Source of the DNA: Promethearchaeota archaeon
GTDB taxonomy: Archaea; Asgardarchaeota; Odinarchaeia; Odinarchaeales; JBHLKK01
Length of the DNA: 23,226 nucleotides
Assembly: GCA_048939465.1 (NCBI GenBank)
Contig: JBHLPL010000019.1
Coordinates: 1 to 23,226 of the forward strand
Direction of reading: 5' to 3'
The notes below the pieces were generated by a model that was not told the origin of the DNA, did not search any database, and saw only the letters and a program-made list of their open reading frames with translations. The position numbers and the translations under genes were made by a program. Shown here piece after piece: positions 6,286-18,437 of the stretch (the first letter of the stretch is position 1; each line of letters opens with the position of its first letter).

Positions 6286-6654
6286 TTGGACGAGCTGGAA
6301 CGGATAAAGAAAAAGAAACTCATGGAACTCATGAAAGAAGCGAAAGACCGTGAGCGAGAGGAAGAGAAACAGAAAGAAGTTGAAAGCAGCAAGGATCAGA
6401 CACTCAAGGCCGTATGCACGCCAGACGCATACCAATATTTGGAATCACTCCAAAAAGTAAAGCCAAAAACTGCTATTGAGATTGGGAGGATAATAATATT
6501 CCTCACGACTAGAAGGAAGCTTGGCGGCAGGGTTACCAAAACAGGCGTCATGATTCTTGAAAGACGCATTGAAGGGGTCGGGCCAAGGATAAGAATAAAG
6601 CGTAGAGGGGAAGACCTAATGGATATATCTGAGAAGCTAAGAAAGAAGGGGTAG
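6286..6654 (+). CDS. PDCD5/TFAR19-like dsDNA-binding protein (divergent)
   Basis: DELERIKKKKLMEL...LKAVCTPDAYQYLESLQKVKPKTA parallels the family pattern dELexIRxxRlxEL...lrqiLTPEAreRLxxixlVKPexA. Confidence 0.75.
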   Translation: MDELERIKKKKLMELMKEAKDREREEEKQKEVESSKDQTLKAVCTPDAYQYLESLQKVKPKTAIEIGRIIIFLTTRRKLGGRVTKTGVMILERRIEGVGPRIRIKRRGEDLMDISEKLRKKG

Positions 6655-7523: not shown

Positions 7524-7982
7524 TTAAACAACAGCCGGGAGAGAGGCCTGGGCAATTTCTTTCTTCTTGCCTGCTTCCAGTCTTACTTCATTTACTGCTA
7601 TATCAACTATAGCGGGTATATTTCTTTTGAGGTCTCGACACATCATACTCTGCCATGTTTCATTCTTCAGCGTTTTGAAGTCGCTGGACGGAAAGACAAC
7701 ATCAACATTTACGATACACATCTCCCTTTCTTTCCCTTGGGGTTCAGTATCTTGATTCACGCCCAGAGAAGCAGGGATACCTGTCCAGAGTATCTTGGCT
7801 TCATTCCCCAACCTTCTTACTCTGACTACGTCGACTGCCTTTAGCACATCAAGTACATCATATATCCGTCTTTTCTTAGTCAAAGGAATACCAATGCTTT
7901 TGGCAATTTCCAGCGGCGATCTGGCTATATCCTGTGATTTCAAGTAAGATACCACTTTCCTCGACAGTTCAGAGAGTTTCAT
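7524..7982 (-). CDS. E2F/DP-family winged-helix DNA-binding domain protein
   Basis: KLSELSRKVVSYLK...EIAKSIG..KKRRIYDVLDVLKAVDVV...KILWTG carries the RRxYD motif and terminal W-x-G of the E2F_TDP domain. GGAGGGAG SD before ATG. Confidence 0.85.
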   Translation of the reverse strand: MKLSELSRKVVSYLKSQDIARSPLEIAKSIGIPLTKKRRIYDVLDVLKAVDVVRVRRLGNEAKILWTGIPASLGVNQDTEPQGKEREMCIVNVDVVFPSSDFKTLKNETWQSMMCRDLKRNIPAIVDIAVNEVRLEAGKKKEIAQASLPAVV

Positions 7983-8135: not shown

Positions 8136-8675
8136 TCATCTTTCATTCTTTTTGCTTCGGATTCTATTAATGGTTCCCTTTGTTAAGGCTGTAAAAGCTT
8201 CATCAACTTTTTGACCTGTTTTTGCGCTTGTCTCTAGGTATAGCGAACCCAGGGAGTTGGCTAATTTCTCAGCATCCTCCTTACGAACAGCCCTTAGGTC
8301 TTCGAGATCCACCTTATTGCCAACAATTACGGTTGAGACTGCTTTCCCAAGAAATTGGTTAAGCTCATCAATCCAATTCCTTAGATTCTGGAAAGTTTGA
8401 GCTCTGGTTAAGTCATAAACAATAAATGCTCCGGACGCTCCCCTGTAAAAAACATTTCGAAATGACTTGAATCTTTCCTGACCCGCAATGTCCCAAATGG
8501 ACAGTACAGCTATCTCACCGTTCACCTCAACATCCTTAGATAGAATATCTACGCCGATTGTCATCTTGTAATCACTTCTAAATTTGCCTTTGACGAAGCG
8601 TGTCACCAGAGTCGTTTTCCCCACTGCAGCATCTCCCAAGAGCAGTATTTTGAAGTTATAGGTTGGACCGGTCAA
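8136..8675 (-). CDS. Rab-like small GTPase (Ras superfamily)
   Basis: G1 GDAAVGKT, switch I TIGVD, G3 WDIAGQERF, FYRGA, G4 GNKVD, G5 ETSAK. TTG start. No C-terminal cysteine. Confidence 0.96.
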   Translation of the reverse strand: MTGPTYNFKILLLGDAAVGKTTLVTRFVKGKFRSDYKMTIGVDILSKDVEVNGEIAVLSIWDIAGQERFKSFRNVFYRGASGAFIVYDLTRAQTFQNLRNWIDELNQFLGKAVSTVIVGNKVDLEDLRAVRKEDAEKLANSLGSLYLETSAKTGQKVDEAFTALTKGTINRIRSKKNER

Positions 8676-8784
8676 GTTAGAGCCACCAGGAATTTAGAGT
8701 TTTCAATATATCTTCATAGGACAATCATTATATTTTTATCTTTCTCAAACATAATTATAGTCATCAGATACGTGGTGTTCGTAG

Positions 8785-9660
8785 ATGGGAAGTTATACGG
8801 TATCAGAAGATGCTCTTTTGAACCTAGTGGAGGGAATTAATTCCAAACAGGTCGTCAGACTGCTAAGAAGATGGGGTCACAAGATTAAACCAGGGAATCC
8901 GAAAGAGAACAATGCTAAGTTGATTCATAAATACGTTGGCAACTCCATTTCAAATGAACAACTCGAAGATCTATGGCTTTTAAGAGAGCAGCATGTAATC
9001 TTTAAGAAGCTGGGATGGAGGCTATTTGAGCTTGATATGAGAATGAAGAAGATGTCTCCCGAAGCTCTAGAAGAAAGGCTGAATGCGATTCTCAAGGAGG
9101 AAAGACTTACCAAAACCACACGATGCAGAGTATATGATCTTGGCAGGAGGAGTCTCCAGTATGTTAGCTTCATTTTTAAGGAAAGAGACAACATCTTCGA
9201 ATCATGGAAAAGTAAATTCAAAATATTCAAGCCTGTTTGGAAAGCTAGATGCATATTAGATTATGATCATAGTGTTATTAGAGTCAATGCAGAGAATGAT
9301 AACCTCGAAGTGGTTTTGAATATTCTTGGCACGGTCATGGGAGGCAGTCTTAAGAGCATCAGACTCCCTCCGTATATCTTGAAAGAATTAGCGGAAGAAG
9401 ATCTTGTGACAAGAATTGTCCTGCTTTCCTCAACTGAGGTGACCGGTGCAAAAGGCGTGGGCAGAATAGTGTTGGAAGGTAAGGATGTCATGAGGGGAGT
9501 AGAGGAGCTTCGTACAAGACAAGAGATAGATCTCAACAAACTAGGAGTGTTGCTCGAAGTGGGCACAAAATCACTAAAAGCAAATGTTGAAGGGATCGTT
9601 TGGACAGAAGACGAAAACAAAATGAATCGTTTTTTGGAGAAATTCATTAAATCAGACTAA
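8785..9660 (+). CDS. Hypothetical protein; candidate CENP-N/Chl4-like protein
   Basis: The ORF is clearly coding (291 aa, ATG after a GGTG SD). The family call rests only on by-eye alignment to recalled CENP-N/Chl4 sequences (see findings). The confidence value is for the family call. Confidence 0.55.
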   Translation: MGSYTVSEDALLNLVEGINSKQVVRLLRRWGHKIKPGNPKENNAKLIHKYVGNSISNEQLEDLWLLREQHVIFKKLGWRLFELDMRMKKMSPEALEERLNAILKEERLTKTTRCRVYDLGRRSLQYVSFIFKERDNIFESWKSKFKIFKPVWKARCILDYDHSVIRVNAENDNLEVVLNILGTVMGGSLKSIRLPPYILKELAEEDLVTRIVLLSSTEVTGAKGVGRIVLEGKDVMRGVEELRTRQEIDLNKLGVLLEVGTKSLKANVEGIVWTEDENKMNRFLEKFIKSD

Positions 9661-9858: not shown

Positions 9859-10386
9859 TTGGAGTGGAGAGCTTTCTGGAGAAGATTTTGGAGCAATTGG
9901 TATAAGAGTAAAGTGAGGAGCTGGGGTGGTAGCAAGGGATTAATCATCCCATCAGCTATGAGAATTCCAAGAGGACCAGTGCTAATTCAGGAAGAAGGGC
10001 ACGTAATAAAAGTCATTCACTTGGCCATTCCCCTTACTGAATTCGTCGGGTTTGTAAAAGCAAGACTTGAGAACAGCTTGGATCATGACAACGGCCTAGA
10101 CTGGTCAGATGAAGAGATGGAAAATCGACTGACGGAAGTGTTGCTGGCGGTTCGGGCTTTGCAGCAACGATCCTCAAAGGAGTCTTCTGAATTCATTAAG
10201 GACACAGAAGATGTCCGCAGTCTCTTCTCAAGCATGGCCGGATCTATTGAGGCCCATCTGAAACTGTTCAGCAAAACGGATTCAGTATTTGGTAAGACAT
10301 TCCACTGGCAAAGACTTATGGACGAGGTGCAGAACGCCCTAAGTGTTCTCAACGGTCTGTTTGGAAAGATCCAGTACGCACAGTAA
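9859..10386 (+). CDS. AbrB/MazE/SpoVT-like DNA-binding domain protein with helical C-terminal domain
   Basis: SKVRSWGGSKGLIIPSAMRI..GPVLIQEEGHVIKVI matches the AbrB swapped-hairpin pattern KVxxWGNSxGIxIP. Start uncertain (TTG 9805 or TTG 9859). Confidence 0.65.
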   Translation: MEWRAFWRRFWSNWYKSKVRSWGGSKGLIIPSAMRIPRGPVLIQEEGHVIKVIHLAIPLTEFVGFVKARLENSLDHDNGLDWSDEEMENRLTEVLLAVRALQQRSSKESSEFIKDTEDVRSLFSSMAGSIEAHLKLFSKTDSVFGKTFHWQRLMDEVQNALSVLNGLFGKIQYAQ

Positions 10387-10864: not shown

Positions 10865-12457
10865 TTAGGCCTCGTCCTCAAAGGAATCAAATGCATCCTT
10901 AAACATCTTGACAGACCAGACCCAGTCTTTACTACGTCCGCTGTATAGTTGTTTTCCCTGGGGATCCTTCAGAGGAATTGCGCTGTGGACGAAATTCTGC
11001 CGAGTTCTGTAGCAGAGCCGCAGATCAGTGACTTCCTTCAGATTCTCTATGTATTCTCTTAAAATGTAATCTAGATTGGTTAGACTTCCCTTTGGAAGGC
11101 TGCAGAAAGCAGCTAGACTGTTATTTCCTCTCAGATCTCTTAGATGATAAACGTAAACCCTCGGTAGCTCAAGAACACAGGATTCGATCGTTTTGAGGAA
11201 ATGCATATCACCTGTACATTGGAGAAACACAGTCTCATCCAGGCCAACATTAACGAGATGTATATATGGAGAGAAGACGGCTTCTCGTTTGAGTCGCTCG
11301 CGACGCTCATATGTCTGAGATATACTGAGACCAAGCTCATTTGATAGCTGCCTTATAGGATTACTCGCATTAAGTGTGAGTAGGTTCAGTAGCTTCAGAT
11401 CTGTTAAATCGAAATCGATCAAACTTGCTTTTTCAGAGTGTTCATCTGTAGACCCCATATCCCCGGTTACATAAACAGAATAAAGACCTTCTCTAAGCAC
11501 TCTTCTAACCCATAATGCCCAGTTTTCCCAGCCGATATTCCACTCCTTTCTCTCGAAATCATAATTGGACTTGATTGCAAATGATTCTCTTTGGTTTGCT
11601 ACCTCCCAAAGCTCGCCTTCTATTCCATACTTCCTCAGGAGCGAAGACAGTGAATCTACAGCGCCTCCCGGTAGCGAGAAGGAGTAGGTGTTTAGAATTG
11701 TTCCAGCTCTCAGTTCTTGGATGATTTTCATATACGGGAGAAGAGGGAGTTTCTGACGTGTAATCAATATGAGGTTGACAAGCCCGAGCTTTCCGTAGTT
11801 TATTCGAGCGTTGACAGTCAGATAACATCTTCGATGAAGACGTCTTAAGTGGGCTGCAACAGTGTTCCTTGACAGTTTCAACTGCTTTGCAAGTTTCTTT
11901 ATCGAAATCAGGGGGTTTTGATCCATTGCGGAAAGCAAATCCACATCGGTTCTGTCGAGAAACATCCTTTGAGTCGATAGAGCAAGTAAATCCATATACT
12001 GAACTGTTTCCTGAACACTAAGCGGATATTTGTACATATCAAATTTGGCGACTCGCTCTACCATATTAGGCAAAAAAGATCCATCTGTAATATTGTCATA
12101 CCATAGCAAATCAAAAACAGAGCAATAAGTCGTTCCATCTTCGAATTGGATTGTGATTTTCGATTGGTCTGTAGGAGAAGAGTTCGTTTTCCTACACCAT
12201 TCGTTGAGTATTTCGGTCTTTTCTTTTCCACTGAGGATTTTGTACAGAAAGAGGTACGTAAGATCCTGACAGATCTGAGAAGGTAGCATCTCGGGCAGGA
12301 AGTGCTGGAAGATGCTACTCAGTCTTGCCTCCTTATCCAGATCGGCAAAGTCGGCAGGATCTATAGTGATAGCTAGCTCCTTTGTCCCAAGTAGGGACTT
12401 AATCTCTTCTATCTCTGCCGCAATTTCTTCTGCAGTGGGAACTAATGCTAACGTCAT
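10865..12457 (-). CDS. Tandem Lrp/AsnC-type transcription regulator with N-terminal extension
   Basis: Two AsnC-type HTH modules: LDRTDVDLLSAM..NPLISIKKLAKQLKLSRNTVAAHLRRL..NYGKLGL and DLTDLKLLNLLTLNASNPIRQLSNELGLSISQTYERRERLK..VNVGL. Confidence 0.82.
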   Translation of the reverse strand: MTLALVPTAEEIAAEIEEIKSLLGTKELAITIDPADFADLDKEARLSSIFQHFLPEMLPSQICQDLTYLFLYKILSGKEKTEILNEWCRKTNSSPTDQSKITIQFEDGTTYCSVFDLLWYDNITDGSFLPNMVERVAKFDMYKYPLSVQETVQYMDLLALSTQRMFLDRTDVDLLSAMDQNPLISIKKLAKQLKLSRNTVAAHLRRLHRRCYLTVNARINYGKLGLVNLILITRQKLPLLPYMKIIQELRAGTILNTYSFSLPGGAVDSLSSLLRKYGIEGELWEVANQRESFAIKSNYDFERKEWNIGWENWALWVRRVLREGLYSVYVTGDMGSTDEHSEKASLIDFDLTDLKLLNLLTLNASNPIRQLSNELGLSISQTYERRERLKREAVFSPYIHLVNVGLDETVFLQCTGDMHFLKTIESCVLELPRVYVYHLRDLRGNNSLAAFCSLPKGSLTNLDYILREYIENLKEVTDLRLCYRTRQNFVHSAIPLKDPQGKQLYSGRSKDWVWSVKMFKDAFDSFEDEA

Positions 12458-17186: not shown

Positions 17187-18437
17187 CTAATTCAATGATA
17201 TGCCAAATTCCTTGCTAAACGTTTCTGCGATGTCATAGAACGCATCCCTGATTACCTTAATCTGATCCCGATTAAGACCGTATACTGACAGCTTTATGTG
17301 CTTACTTAGTCCTCTATGGAGACCAACGATCTTCCTTTTTATCATTTCTTCGGCCAAAAAGAAGCCTTTGCGCTTATGATGTTTGGAGATCTCCCAAAAT
17401 ACGGGGGTCTCAAACGCTAATAGGTGATGAAGGTGAGGGCGTGCTCCAAGGAGCATTATTCCATTCAGTTTCTCTAATTCTTCCACGAGCCACTGGGTTT
17501 TTTTGAGCTCTTCATTCCAGTGTTTGACTCTCTCCACAACGCTGGGGAAAGAATACATCGAAGAGATTAGGGGAGTCCCACCCACACTGCACCCGAAGAC
17601 ATTGATCATCTTTGCTCCAAAAGATCTACCGCTCCAATCTGTGACGGTAGAGGATTTTCTGAATATCTTCTTTTCCCAATCATAGTTCGTTACGACAAAT
17701 CCCAAGGGACCTAGTGAAGCCATGGACTTATGTGCCGAGACTGTCAGAAAATCCGCCTTCAGGTCTCTGATATTTACAGGAAGTATTCCAGCTGTATAGG
17801 CACCGTTGATCATATACGGTATGTCGTATTCTCTCGCTATTCTTCCCACTTCTTTGACTGGATTAAGATTACCGTAGTATGGTTCCACATGGGTTACCAT
17901 AATCAGTCCAGGAAGCTTTCCTGTCTTTTCTCTTATTTCTTCTATTTTTCTGGCGTAGTCTTCTGCTTCTATCCTATATTCAGGATAGCCCTTATTCGGA
18001 ACCTCAGCGACTTCGAGTCCATTCATTTCGGCAGCCATTATGGTTGTATAGTGGGACAGCGAATCGGCAACCAGTATGTTTGCATAATCTTTTGAAGAGT
18101 CCTCTTTTAGATGCTCCGATATTGTCTTTACTACTGAGAATTGGGCTGCTCTGCAACCGAAAGTGTGTTCGGCAAGATCTCCACCAAAGAACTCCGCGAC
18201 ATCCTTGAGGAAGTCTCCAATTGGAGGCTTGGAAATCAGATCGGATCTTCCCTCAAGGCAGTCAAAACACACTGAATAACCGATTTTTGTCCATTCTTCA
18301 GCGCGTAGAGCATTCTGAATTTCTGTGGACAGTATTCCCCCGGTCATAATCGGATGAACTATTAAGCTTCCTTTGTATCTATTACGCAGATTCCGATATT
18401 TTTCTAGATCCTTCAACGTTTTATCCTCCTCCGTCAT
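17187..18437 (-). CDS. pscS: O-phosphoseryl-tRNA:Cys-tRNA synthase (SepCysS)
   Basis: PIMTGGIL, GYSVCFDC (CxxC), KPPI, SHYTT..AAE, YGNL, NGAY, PLP-lysine motif SAHKS, third Cys in FGCS. Confidence 0.9.
   Translation of the reverse strand: MTEEDKTLKDLEKYRNLRNRYKGSLIVHPIMTGGILSTEIQNALRAEEWTKIGYSVCFDCLEGRSDLISKPPIGDFLKDVAEFFGGDLAEHTFGCRAAQFSVVKTISEHLKEDSSKDYANILVADSLSHYTTIMAAEMNGLEVAEVPNKGYPEYRIEAEDYARKIEEIREKTGKLPGLIMVTHVEPYYGNLNPVKEVGRIAREYDIPYMINGAYTAGILPVNIRDLKADFLTVSAHKSMASLGPLGFVVTNYDWEKKIFRKSSTVTDWSGRSFGAKMINVFGCSVGGTPLISSMYSFPSVVERVKHWNEELKKTQWLVEELEKLNGIMLLGARPHLHHLLAFETPVFWEISKHHKRKGFFLAEEMIKRKIVGLHRGLSKHIKLSVYGLNRDQIKVIRDAFYDIAETFSKEFGISLN

Follow-up and report, generated by a model that had tools for sequence, protein, structure and literature searches.

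Kinetochore proteins are treated as eukaryote-specific. Two families among them, CENP-N/Chl4 (PF05238) and CENP-L/Iml3 (PF13092), are paralogues that pair with each other: CENP-N and Chl4 (339 and 458 amino acids) begin with a helical, pyrin-like domain that packs onto an L/N homology domain (LNHD), with a C-terminal domain after it, while CENP-L and Iml3 consist of the LNHD and the C-terminal domain, with CENP-L forming a heterodimer with CENP-N. RdgC (PF04381), a recombination-associated bacterial protein that forms a toroidal DNA-binding homodimer, is known from Proteobacteria and phages, not from archaea. CENP-L/N have already been related to RdgC in the literature, and duplication of a homodimeric singleton has been put forward as the origin of the CENP-LN heterodimer. 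Here, we describe a gene at positions 8785..9660 (+ strand) of the archaeal contig JBHLPL010000019.1 (23,226 nucleotides), the 291-amino-acid product of which (P0001) is, based on structure prediction, best regarded as a new archaeal variant, predicted to form homodimers, within the superfamily of RdgC/CENP-L/N clamps, and as a credible candidate for a pre-duplication relative of CENP-L/N.

The window, i.e. the whole stretch of DNA analysed, is the entire contig C33 of a genome of 1.96 Mb (152 contigs, 91 % complete, 3.8 % contaminated) in which the P0001 gene has a copy number of one. The first-pass annotation had proposed a full-length CENP-N/Chl4 homologue at this position, and the open reading frame (ORF; ATG start, stop codon included) was present as claimed, together with all peptides quoted from it. 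A spurious or wrong-frame ORF was ruled out, the family being kept over at least 45 diverse sequences with a confident fold. The AlphaFold2 model of P0001, computed with a 23-sequence alignment, reached a predicted local distance difference test score (pLDDT) of 83.8 and a predicted template modelling score (pTM) of 0.81, with only loop 135-143 poorly predicted. It starts with a helical domain (amino acids 1-76, positions 8785..9012, with helices at 8-15, 20-29, 43-51 and 57-75), the predicted counterpart of the pyrin-like domain of CENP-N/Chl4, followed by a TBP-like alpha+beta LNHD with the proposed DNA-binding surface (approximately amino acids 77-190, positions 9013..9354) and an alpha+beta C-terminal domain with a proposed role in dimerisation (approximately amino acids 191-291, positions 9355..9657), all on the + strand. 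The succession of an N-terminal helical and a TBP-like domain that had been anticipated from the sequence is thus seen in the predicted structure.

A Foldseek search of this model against the PDB returned CENP-N, CENP-L, Chl4 or Iml3 at all of ranks 1-22 (E-values 2.5e-7 to 8.6e-5), with Escherichia coli RdgC next (1e-4 to 5e-4) and then a gap to 1.7e-2, so that, in line with the first-pass annotation, the best matches were not to an unrelated prokaryotic family. VIA-align was run independently over 48,161 representatives and then over the top 1000 chains from Foldseek. It gave the best match overall to CENP-L (Z 13.3-14.7 over 203-209 residues, root-mean-square deviation (rmsd) 3.3-3.8, model residues 62-291 on CENP-L 57-344), followed by Chl4 (Z 12.1-12.4, model residues 1-285 on Chl4 10-261), Iml3 (Z 11.6-11.9, Iml3 1-242 aligned up to model residue 291) and CENP-N(1-212) (Z 11.4-11.7, rmsd 3.7-3.9, 186-192 of 198-207 residues from model residue 3 onwards). 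Since nearly all of CENP-N(1-212) aligns, its pyrin domain, or at least most of it, is included in the alignment. RdgC followed with Z 10.5-10.7 at a higher rmsd of 6.2-6.5, while other folds, i.e. the adaptin appendage, TBP and generic TBP-like chains, stayed at Z 7.2 or below (TBP chains on model residues 77-192, Z 6.4-7.1). The alignments to CENP-L, Iml3 and RdgC mostly begin at model residues 62-74 (69-72 for RdgC), and hence the N-terminal helical domain of P0001, in contrast to the remainder of the model, has no aligned counterpart in CENP-L/Iml3 and is lacking in RdgC. Sequence identity of P0001 to all of these structural matches was 7-15 %.

A replicate model of a Heimdall-type member that is about 18 % identical to P0001 (pLDDT 92.0, pTM 0.88) again placed CENP-N/L, Iml3 or Chl4 at Foldseek ranks 1-22 (7.9e-5 to 1.5e-2), before RdgC (2.4e-2), and had its highest VIA-align score with CENP-L (Z 10.4). 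Because the structural alignments cover all three parts of P0001, its model gives the three-part order of CENP-N, i.e. N-terminal helical domain, LNHD and C-terminal domain, and the latter two are arranged in the predicted structure with the same mutual orientation as in CENP-L and Iml3. Based on these models, membership in the RdgC/CENP-L/N superfamily is solid and the preference for CENP-L/N over RdgC moderate. The resemblance to CENP-L/N is beyond chance at the structural level and borderline at the sequence level.

Sequence-level links were found at both ends of the protein. With a profile of 23 family members (A2), the top five matches among PDB sequences were human CENP-N constructs, i.e. 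one protein (E-values 0.0034-0.024). In this HMMER alignment, profile positions 13-134 fall on human CENP-N 7-138, with the N-terminal part on CENP-N 7-77; the family stretch 'sWGf' lies on 'AWDF' of CENP-N, 'leeklnkilk' on 'FKNSFKKILQ' and the well-conserved W78 on the Trp of 'QKVWDVFQM'. The register of the three N-terminal blocks that had been proposed as colinear with human CENP-N is thereby reproduced. The most conserved motif of the family (amino acids 218-254, positions 9436..9546, + strand; E.tG..G..RI.LEG.DV..G..EL..RQEIDL.KLG in alignments A2 and A5), in which 45 sequences share G221, G224, G232, R245 and G254 without exception, had been compared with a Chl4-type C-terminal motif. 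A profile of an 8-member subclade (A7) aligned it to yeast Chl4 at approximately 380-439 ('IKLKFNGNDIFGGLHELCDKNLINIDKVPG'), with the Chl4 C-terminal domain 4je3_B as the top PDB match (E-value 0.019) and Chl4 constructs making up five of the seven matches. Likewise, PF05238 was the most often weakly matched of 24,736 Pfam models, i.e. by three of the 45 members with 11-13 bits at Pfam positions 366-395 of 410, below the curated gathering threshold of 25 bits. In a genome-wide Asgard scan, the family gene took 2 of the 27 weak PF05238 matches. However, the profile of the C-terminal half of the whole family (A3) found nothing, and on the structural side this domain is supported by the alignments to CENP-L/Iml3, which run up to residue 291. 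Taken together, the weight of the sequence evidence is weak, but it concerns two regions, in the right order and from the same eukaryotic family, and agrees with the structures.

CENP-N/Chl4 pair with a CENP-L/Iml3 paralogue, whereas for P0001 a CENP-L/Iml3-like partner, for which the first-pass annotation had suggested a search, was not found in the source genome. The latter carries one copy of the family gene, no further paralogue (at 91 % completeness) and no PF13092 match at E-values up to 10; PF13092 was also not matched by any of the 45 members. Instead, P0001 is predicted to form a symmetric homodimer. The two-copy prediction had an interaction prediction score from aligned errors (ipSAE) of 0.64 compared with 0.13 for the best of three controls, with at least 86 % of contacts agreeing between runs and a partner pLDDT of at least 82; the mark used for dimers was reached by 20/30 proteins solved as one-chain pairs and by 1/23 solved as single chains. 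The predicted interface lies in the C-terminal domain and runs through the motif that is best conserved in the family, with the tightest modelled contacts made by strand 225-232, antiparallel with itself, helix 235-249 and a swapped loop 134-151. With isoelectric points of 9.6 for the N-terminal domain, 9.5 for the LNHD and 5.3 for the C-terminal domain, the first two domains would suit contact with DNA and the third one pairing; the median over the family is 9.2. The basic patches that had been taken as support for histone or DNA binding (RLLRRW, KKLGWR, KTTRCR, KSKFK) are present in P0001 but do not belong to the basic positions that are conserved across the family.

On balance, we lean towards the view that the P0001 family represents a homodimeric DNA clamp of the RdgC/CENP-L/N (LNHD) superfamily, possibly a pre-duplication relative of CENP-L/N. 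Two copies would pair symmetrically via strand 225-232 and the following helix, an element that may be the counterpart of the Chl4 C-terminal domain (361-458) crystallised as a heterodimer with Iml3 (PDB 4je3), and the pair would form a two-fold symmetric vault or clamp. Its basic N-terminal and LNHD surfaces might then hold double-stranded DNA (dsDNA) or chromatin in a sequence-nonspecific manner; DNA binding is inferred here by analogy with CENP-N, CENP-L and RdgC, the homodimer of the latter embracing DNA in the way proposed for P0001. A homodimeric singleton of this type would be the kind of ancestor that has been proposed for the CENP-L/CENP-N heterodimer by duplication. To our knowledge, neither CENP-A nor the CCAN (constitutive centromere-associated network) is known in archaea, and therefore nucleosome reading by P0001 is not to be assumed.

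The family is a conserved Asgard-archaeal one. Single-sequence search recovered four close relatives with 65-77 % identity, and an exhaustive phmmer search over 1.84 billion representatives yielded 23 proteins at E-values up to 1e-3, nearly all of 264-316 amino acids and 23-40 % identical to P0001 over the matched stretches, with no clearly bacterial relative. A word-indexed profile search added a few further Asgard proteins and neither bacterial nor eukaryotic ones, and a profile search of genome contigs found one close relative, labelled Hodarchaeota. With the 23-member profile, the gene was detected in 102 of the 301 sampled Asgard genomes, essentially always as a single copy. Its presence follows GTDB families, with 27/29, 20/21, 11/11 and 10/11 genomes in some and 0/76, 0/68 and 0/19 in others; in five high-quality genomes of families lacking the gene (f6, f9, f12 and f13), a richer profile returned nothing credible at E-values up to 5. 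Named carriers include Odinarchaeum yellowstonii, Heimdallarchaeum aukensis, H. endolithica, other 'Heimdallarchaeota' metagenome-assembled genomes, Freyarchaeum deiterrae, Helarchaeota and 'Hodarchaeota'. When 45 members were placed in a maximum-likelihood tree, they grouped by GTDB family, with 23 label changes, where 20 is the lowest possible number and shuffled labels average 33.8 (none of 200 label shuffles was as low). Because the tree follows the GTDB families and its branches are long, the pattern fits a vertically inherited, fast-evolving gene. At NCBI, one member bears the name of a bacterium, 'Candidatus Deferrimicrobium sp.', and over the compared stretch it does not differ from a protein of a GTDB-Asgard genome (P0006/L010, G296:C217); misbinning or misnaming is the probable cause of this label. 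In another genome (G051:C198:20697-21476), the family gene appears as two adjoining matches, one to profile positions 13-129 and one to 164-293, which probably reflects a frameshift or a split of this copy.

Several results weigh against a close link of the clamp to CENP-L/N. In the replicate, RdgC (Z 8.9) ties with Iml3 (Z 9.1) and exceeds CENP-N (Z 7.4-7.8), with Chl4 at Z 8.0. P0001 itself has no PF05238 match at E-values up to 1, so that the match to the CENP-N/CHL4 Pfam profile expected for a homologue of that family was not obtained, and none of the 301 Asgard genomes contains a PF05238 match over the cut-off. Outside the family, single-sequence searches with P0001 (phmmer against PDB sequences; Pfam, NCBIfam, PADLOC and PHROGs) were all negative. 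Positive PDB sequence matches came from two of six family profiles: those of the five closest members (A1), of 18 distant members (A4) and of 45 diverse members (A5), as well as the C-terminal-half profile A3, found no CENP-N, Chl4, CENP-L, Iml3 or RdgC in the PDB at E-values up to 10. Since these four give none, the matches to CENP-N/Chl4 are not robust but fragile; when corrected for the seven PDB sequence searches, the two positive E-values become approximately 0.02 and 0.13, i.e. singly marginal. In the ESM Atlas, clusters of hypothetical bacterial, archaeal and phage proteins score 0.94-0.96 by features compared to 0.80 for CENP-N and 0.75 for CENP-L, with a structural template modelling (TM) score of 0.72 over residues 4-291 compared to 0.58 for CENP-L, and clusters of uncharacterised bacterial and phage proteins are nearer than CENP-N/L for both P0001 and the Heimdallarchaeum member; since they have no solved structures, these clusters cannot be ranked by PDB searches. 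Finally, the dimer prediction may reflect the memory of the model for the solved Iml3-Chl4, CENP-LN and RdgC dimers, and because such similar dimers have already been solved, its score indicates likeness rather than proof.

Part of this evidence would also suit a prokaryotic RdgC-type ring or clamp, i.e. a recombination modulator or partner of a chromatin protein whose likeness to CENP-L/N stems from the ancient superfamily only, an explanation that we regard as possible but rather unlikely. Besides the RdgC scores in both models, it draws on one of the 45 members matching PF04381 weakly (E-value 0.055; there was no match in the source genome at E-values up to 10), on phage RdgC proteins being the best, if weaker, viral matches to P0001 in BFVD (E-values of at least 2.7e-4, TM scores up to 0.42) and on the taxa of the nearest Atlas clusters. 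These were reported as Bacillota and Methanobacteriota, matching the RdgC-like proteins encoded after histone genes in Bacillus and Halobacteria, which carry small additional domains at both termini (Schwab et al. 2024, PMC11390915). The genes for the latter, however, are located after a histone gene and before a membrane-protein gene, while the P0001 family gene lies beside a Ras-family GTPase or a zinc-ribbon protein gene, and the two histone genes of the source genome, both of the ordinary archaeal kind, are on contigs C23 and C34 and thus not adjacent. Furthermore, CENP-L/N, Chl4 and Iml3 outrank RdgC by two to three orders of magnitude in Foldseek E-value and align to P0001 with an rmsd of 3.3-4.5 compared to 6.2-6.5; the N-terminal domain has no equivalent in RdgC; the PDB sequence matches, which are colinear and concern both ends, come from CENP-N and Chl4 and in no case from RdgC; and the exhaustive phmmer search yielded no clearly bacterial relative.

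The same fold class, i.e. a dimeric DNA-binding ring or horseshoe, is found in defence proteins. For GAPS4b, which docks a PD-(D/E)xK nuclease, a dimeric ring that encircles dsDNA and has helical globular domains has been predicted (PMC13748975), and lambda RexA shares the RdgC and CENP-L/N fold (PMC11077077). Atlas clusters scoring 0.90-0.92 with P0001 partly carry the GAPS4b_N domain (PF26110, in 15-21 % of members), so that a DNA-sensing ring subunit of an antiviral system could be envisaged, which we nonetheless judge very improbable. In contrast to GAPS4b and RexA, P0001 has no partner nuclease (none adjacent in 22 loci), no RexB and no defence-island context, and RexA reached a Z score of 4.8-5.1. 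A defence role of the family is unlikely because the gene is single-copy, is distributed along family lines with a tree congruent with taxonomy, lies in a stable housekeeping context (ribosomal protein S7 and ThyX) from the source genome to Odinarchaeum and has neither PADLOC (0 matches) nor PHROGs matches. Equally little credence can be given to convergence or an artefact of structure prediction that would leave P0001 unrelated to both CENP-L/N and RdgC: identities are 7-15 %, no curated family threshold is reached and both structures are predictions, but two high-confidence models of members only about 18 % identical give the same ranking, three domains are matched in the same order over 190-209 residues, and independent weak sequence matches have the same register at both ends.

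Returning to the clamp as a possible pre-duplication relative, we infer a special relationship of the family to CENP-L/N. Because P0001 resembles CENP-L no less than CENP-N and no second paralogue was found, the family looks like a singleton relative of both rather than an orthologue of CENP-N that pairs with CENP-L. In fold and domain order, the initial proposal of a full-length CENP-N/Chl4 homologue stands; in its assignment to that family in particular, it does not. P0001 is shorter and lacks the long linker of Chl4, falls below the curated Pfam threshold (and has no Pfam match as a CENP-L/Iml3 protein either), and is predicted to be a homodimer. It should not be filed under CENP-N/Chl4, since it stays below the curated cut-off and shows neither the heterodimer partner nor a kinetochore context. 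An 'ancestor of the inner kinetochore', as had also been suggested, is not established, considering the RdgC Z scores and the bacterial and phage proteins in the Atlas that are as near or nearer.

The contig further encodes an S7p/S5e ribosomal protein, ThyX, a LarA-like protein, a radical-SAM/SPASM enzyme, an E2F/DP winged-helix protein and a Ras-family GTPase. Its gene order recurs around relatives of P0001 with 65 % and approximately 24 % identity, one of these loci coming from Candidatus Odinarchaeum yellowstonii LCB_4 (family member OdinLCB4_000125), whose closed genome falls in the same GTDB order as the source genome. The contig is truly Asgard archaeal; the first-pass annotation had asked for its archaeal origin to be confirmed. 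The P0001 gene is separated from the divergent gene for the Ras-family small GTPase (8136..8675, - strand; Pfam Ras, E-value 2.8e-56) by an intergenic spacer of 109 bp (8676..8784). This contains two A/T-rich stretches resembling TATA elements (8730-8739 and 8751-8759) as well as GGTG at 8773-8776, with putative promoter and ribosome-binding roles.

A Ras-family GTPase gene directly adjoins the family gene in four GTDB families, divergently in the Odin-type families f1 and f2 and co-directionally upstream in the sister Heimdall-type families f18 and f21 (loci L047, L051 and L052 among those noted). As the genomes encode 13-57 Ras-family GTPases each, chance adjacency would amount to approximately 1-2 % per lineage, and the association is suggestive, with perhaps two independent events behind it. 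In Odinarchaeum yellowstonii LCB_4, the neighbouring GTPase gene consists of two ORFs separated by a TAG (G001:C1:20778-21247 = L039:7337-7872). Five other Asgard families instead have a gene for a basic zinc-ribbon protein of 130-161 amino acids directly upstream and on the same strand (L042:7045-7434, L043:9262-9654, L044:7371-7853, L045:7935-8378, L050:7535-7936, L053:6367-6771 and L054:8966-9409); it contains CxxC ... CPSCG and a conserved 'SPMPDK.G' stretch and has no Pfam family. Neither histone, nuclease (22 loci) nor SMC-type neighbours of the family gene were seen.

Downstream of the P0001 gene, a conserved ORF for a protein of 168-193 amino acids (9859..10386, + strand; longest frame from 9805, with TTG 9859 as the likely start judging from relatives) is kept beside the family gene only in Odin-type lineages. 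It has no significant Pfam or NCBIfam match and, judged by eye, an AbrB/SpoVT-looking 'KVRSWGGSKGLIIP' stretch. The neighbourhood is rich in DNA-binding proteins. The E2F/DP-type winged-helix protein (7524-7982, - strand; PF02319, E-value 1.1e-8), a eukaryote-like DNA-binding domain in an archaeon, is kept beside the GTPase in Odin-type loci; the locus is flanked by a PDCD5-like dsDNA-binding protein (6286-6654, + strand), which clusters with PF01984 genes of related loci, and by a 530-amino-acid protein with two AsnC-type helix-turn-helix domains (10865-12457, - strand). In addition, a pyridoxal phosphate-dependent enzyme (17187-18437, - strand) matches both aminotransferase class V (1.3e-15) and SepSecS (6.2e-15) and, going by these matches, could act on tRNA-bound phosphoserine (Sep), selenocysteine (Sec) or cysteine (Cys) substrates.

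An Asgard CENP-N/L-like protein has not been reported in the searchable full-text literature, which leaves out most subscription journals, and an earlier description is possible. In the analysis by Tromer et al. (2019), no significant relatives of CENP-L/N emerged at the sequence level, and a 2025 review lists kinetochores among the factors absent from prokaryotes, with essentially nothing known on chromosome segregation in Asgard archaea. It is tempting to go one step further and to see in the family a direct archaeal forerunner of CENP-L/CENP-N, i.e. a clamp on archaeal chromatin or on a specific locus that acts in chromosome organisation or segregation, possibly under the adjacent Ras-like GTPase. 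We consider this doubtful; if true, it would be a first piece of a 'proto-kinetochore' machinery in the lineage leading to eukaryotes. Even if P0001 turned out to be an ordinary RdgC-like protein, it would still extend the DNA-clamp superfamily to archaea. As a conserved single-copy family in Heimdallarchaeia and Odinarchaeia with the predicted layout of CENP-N, it provides a concrete candidate for the 'homodimeric singleton' that has been proposed as the ancestor of CENP-LN.

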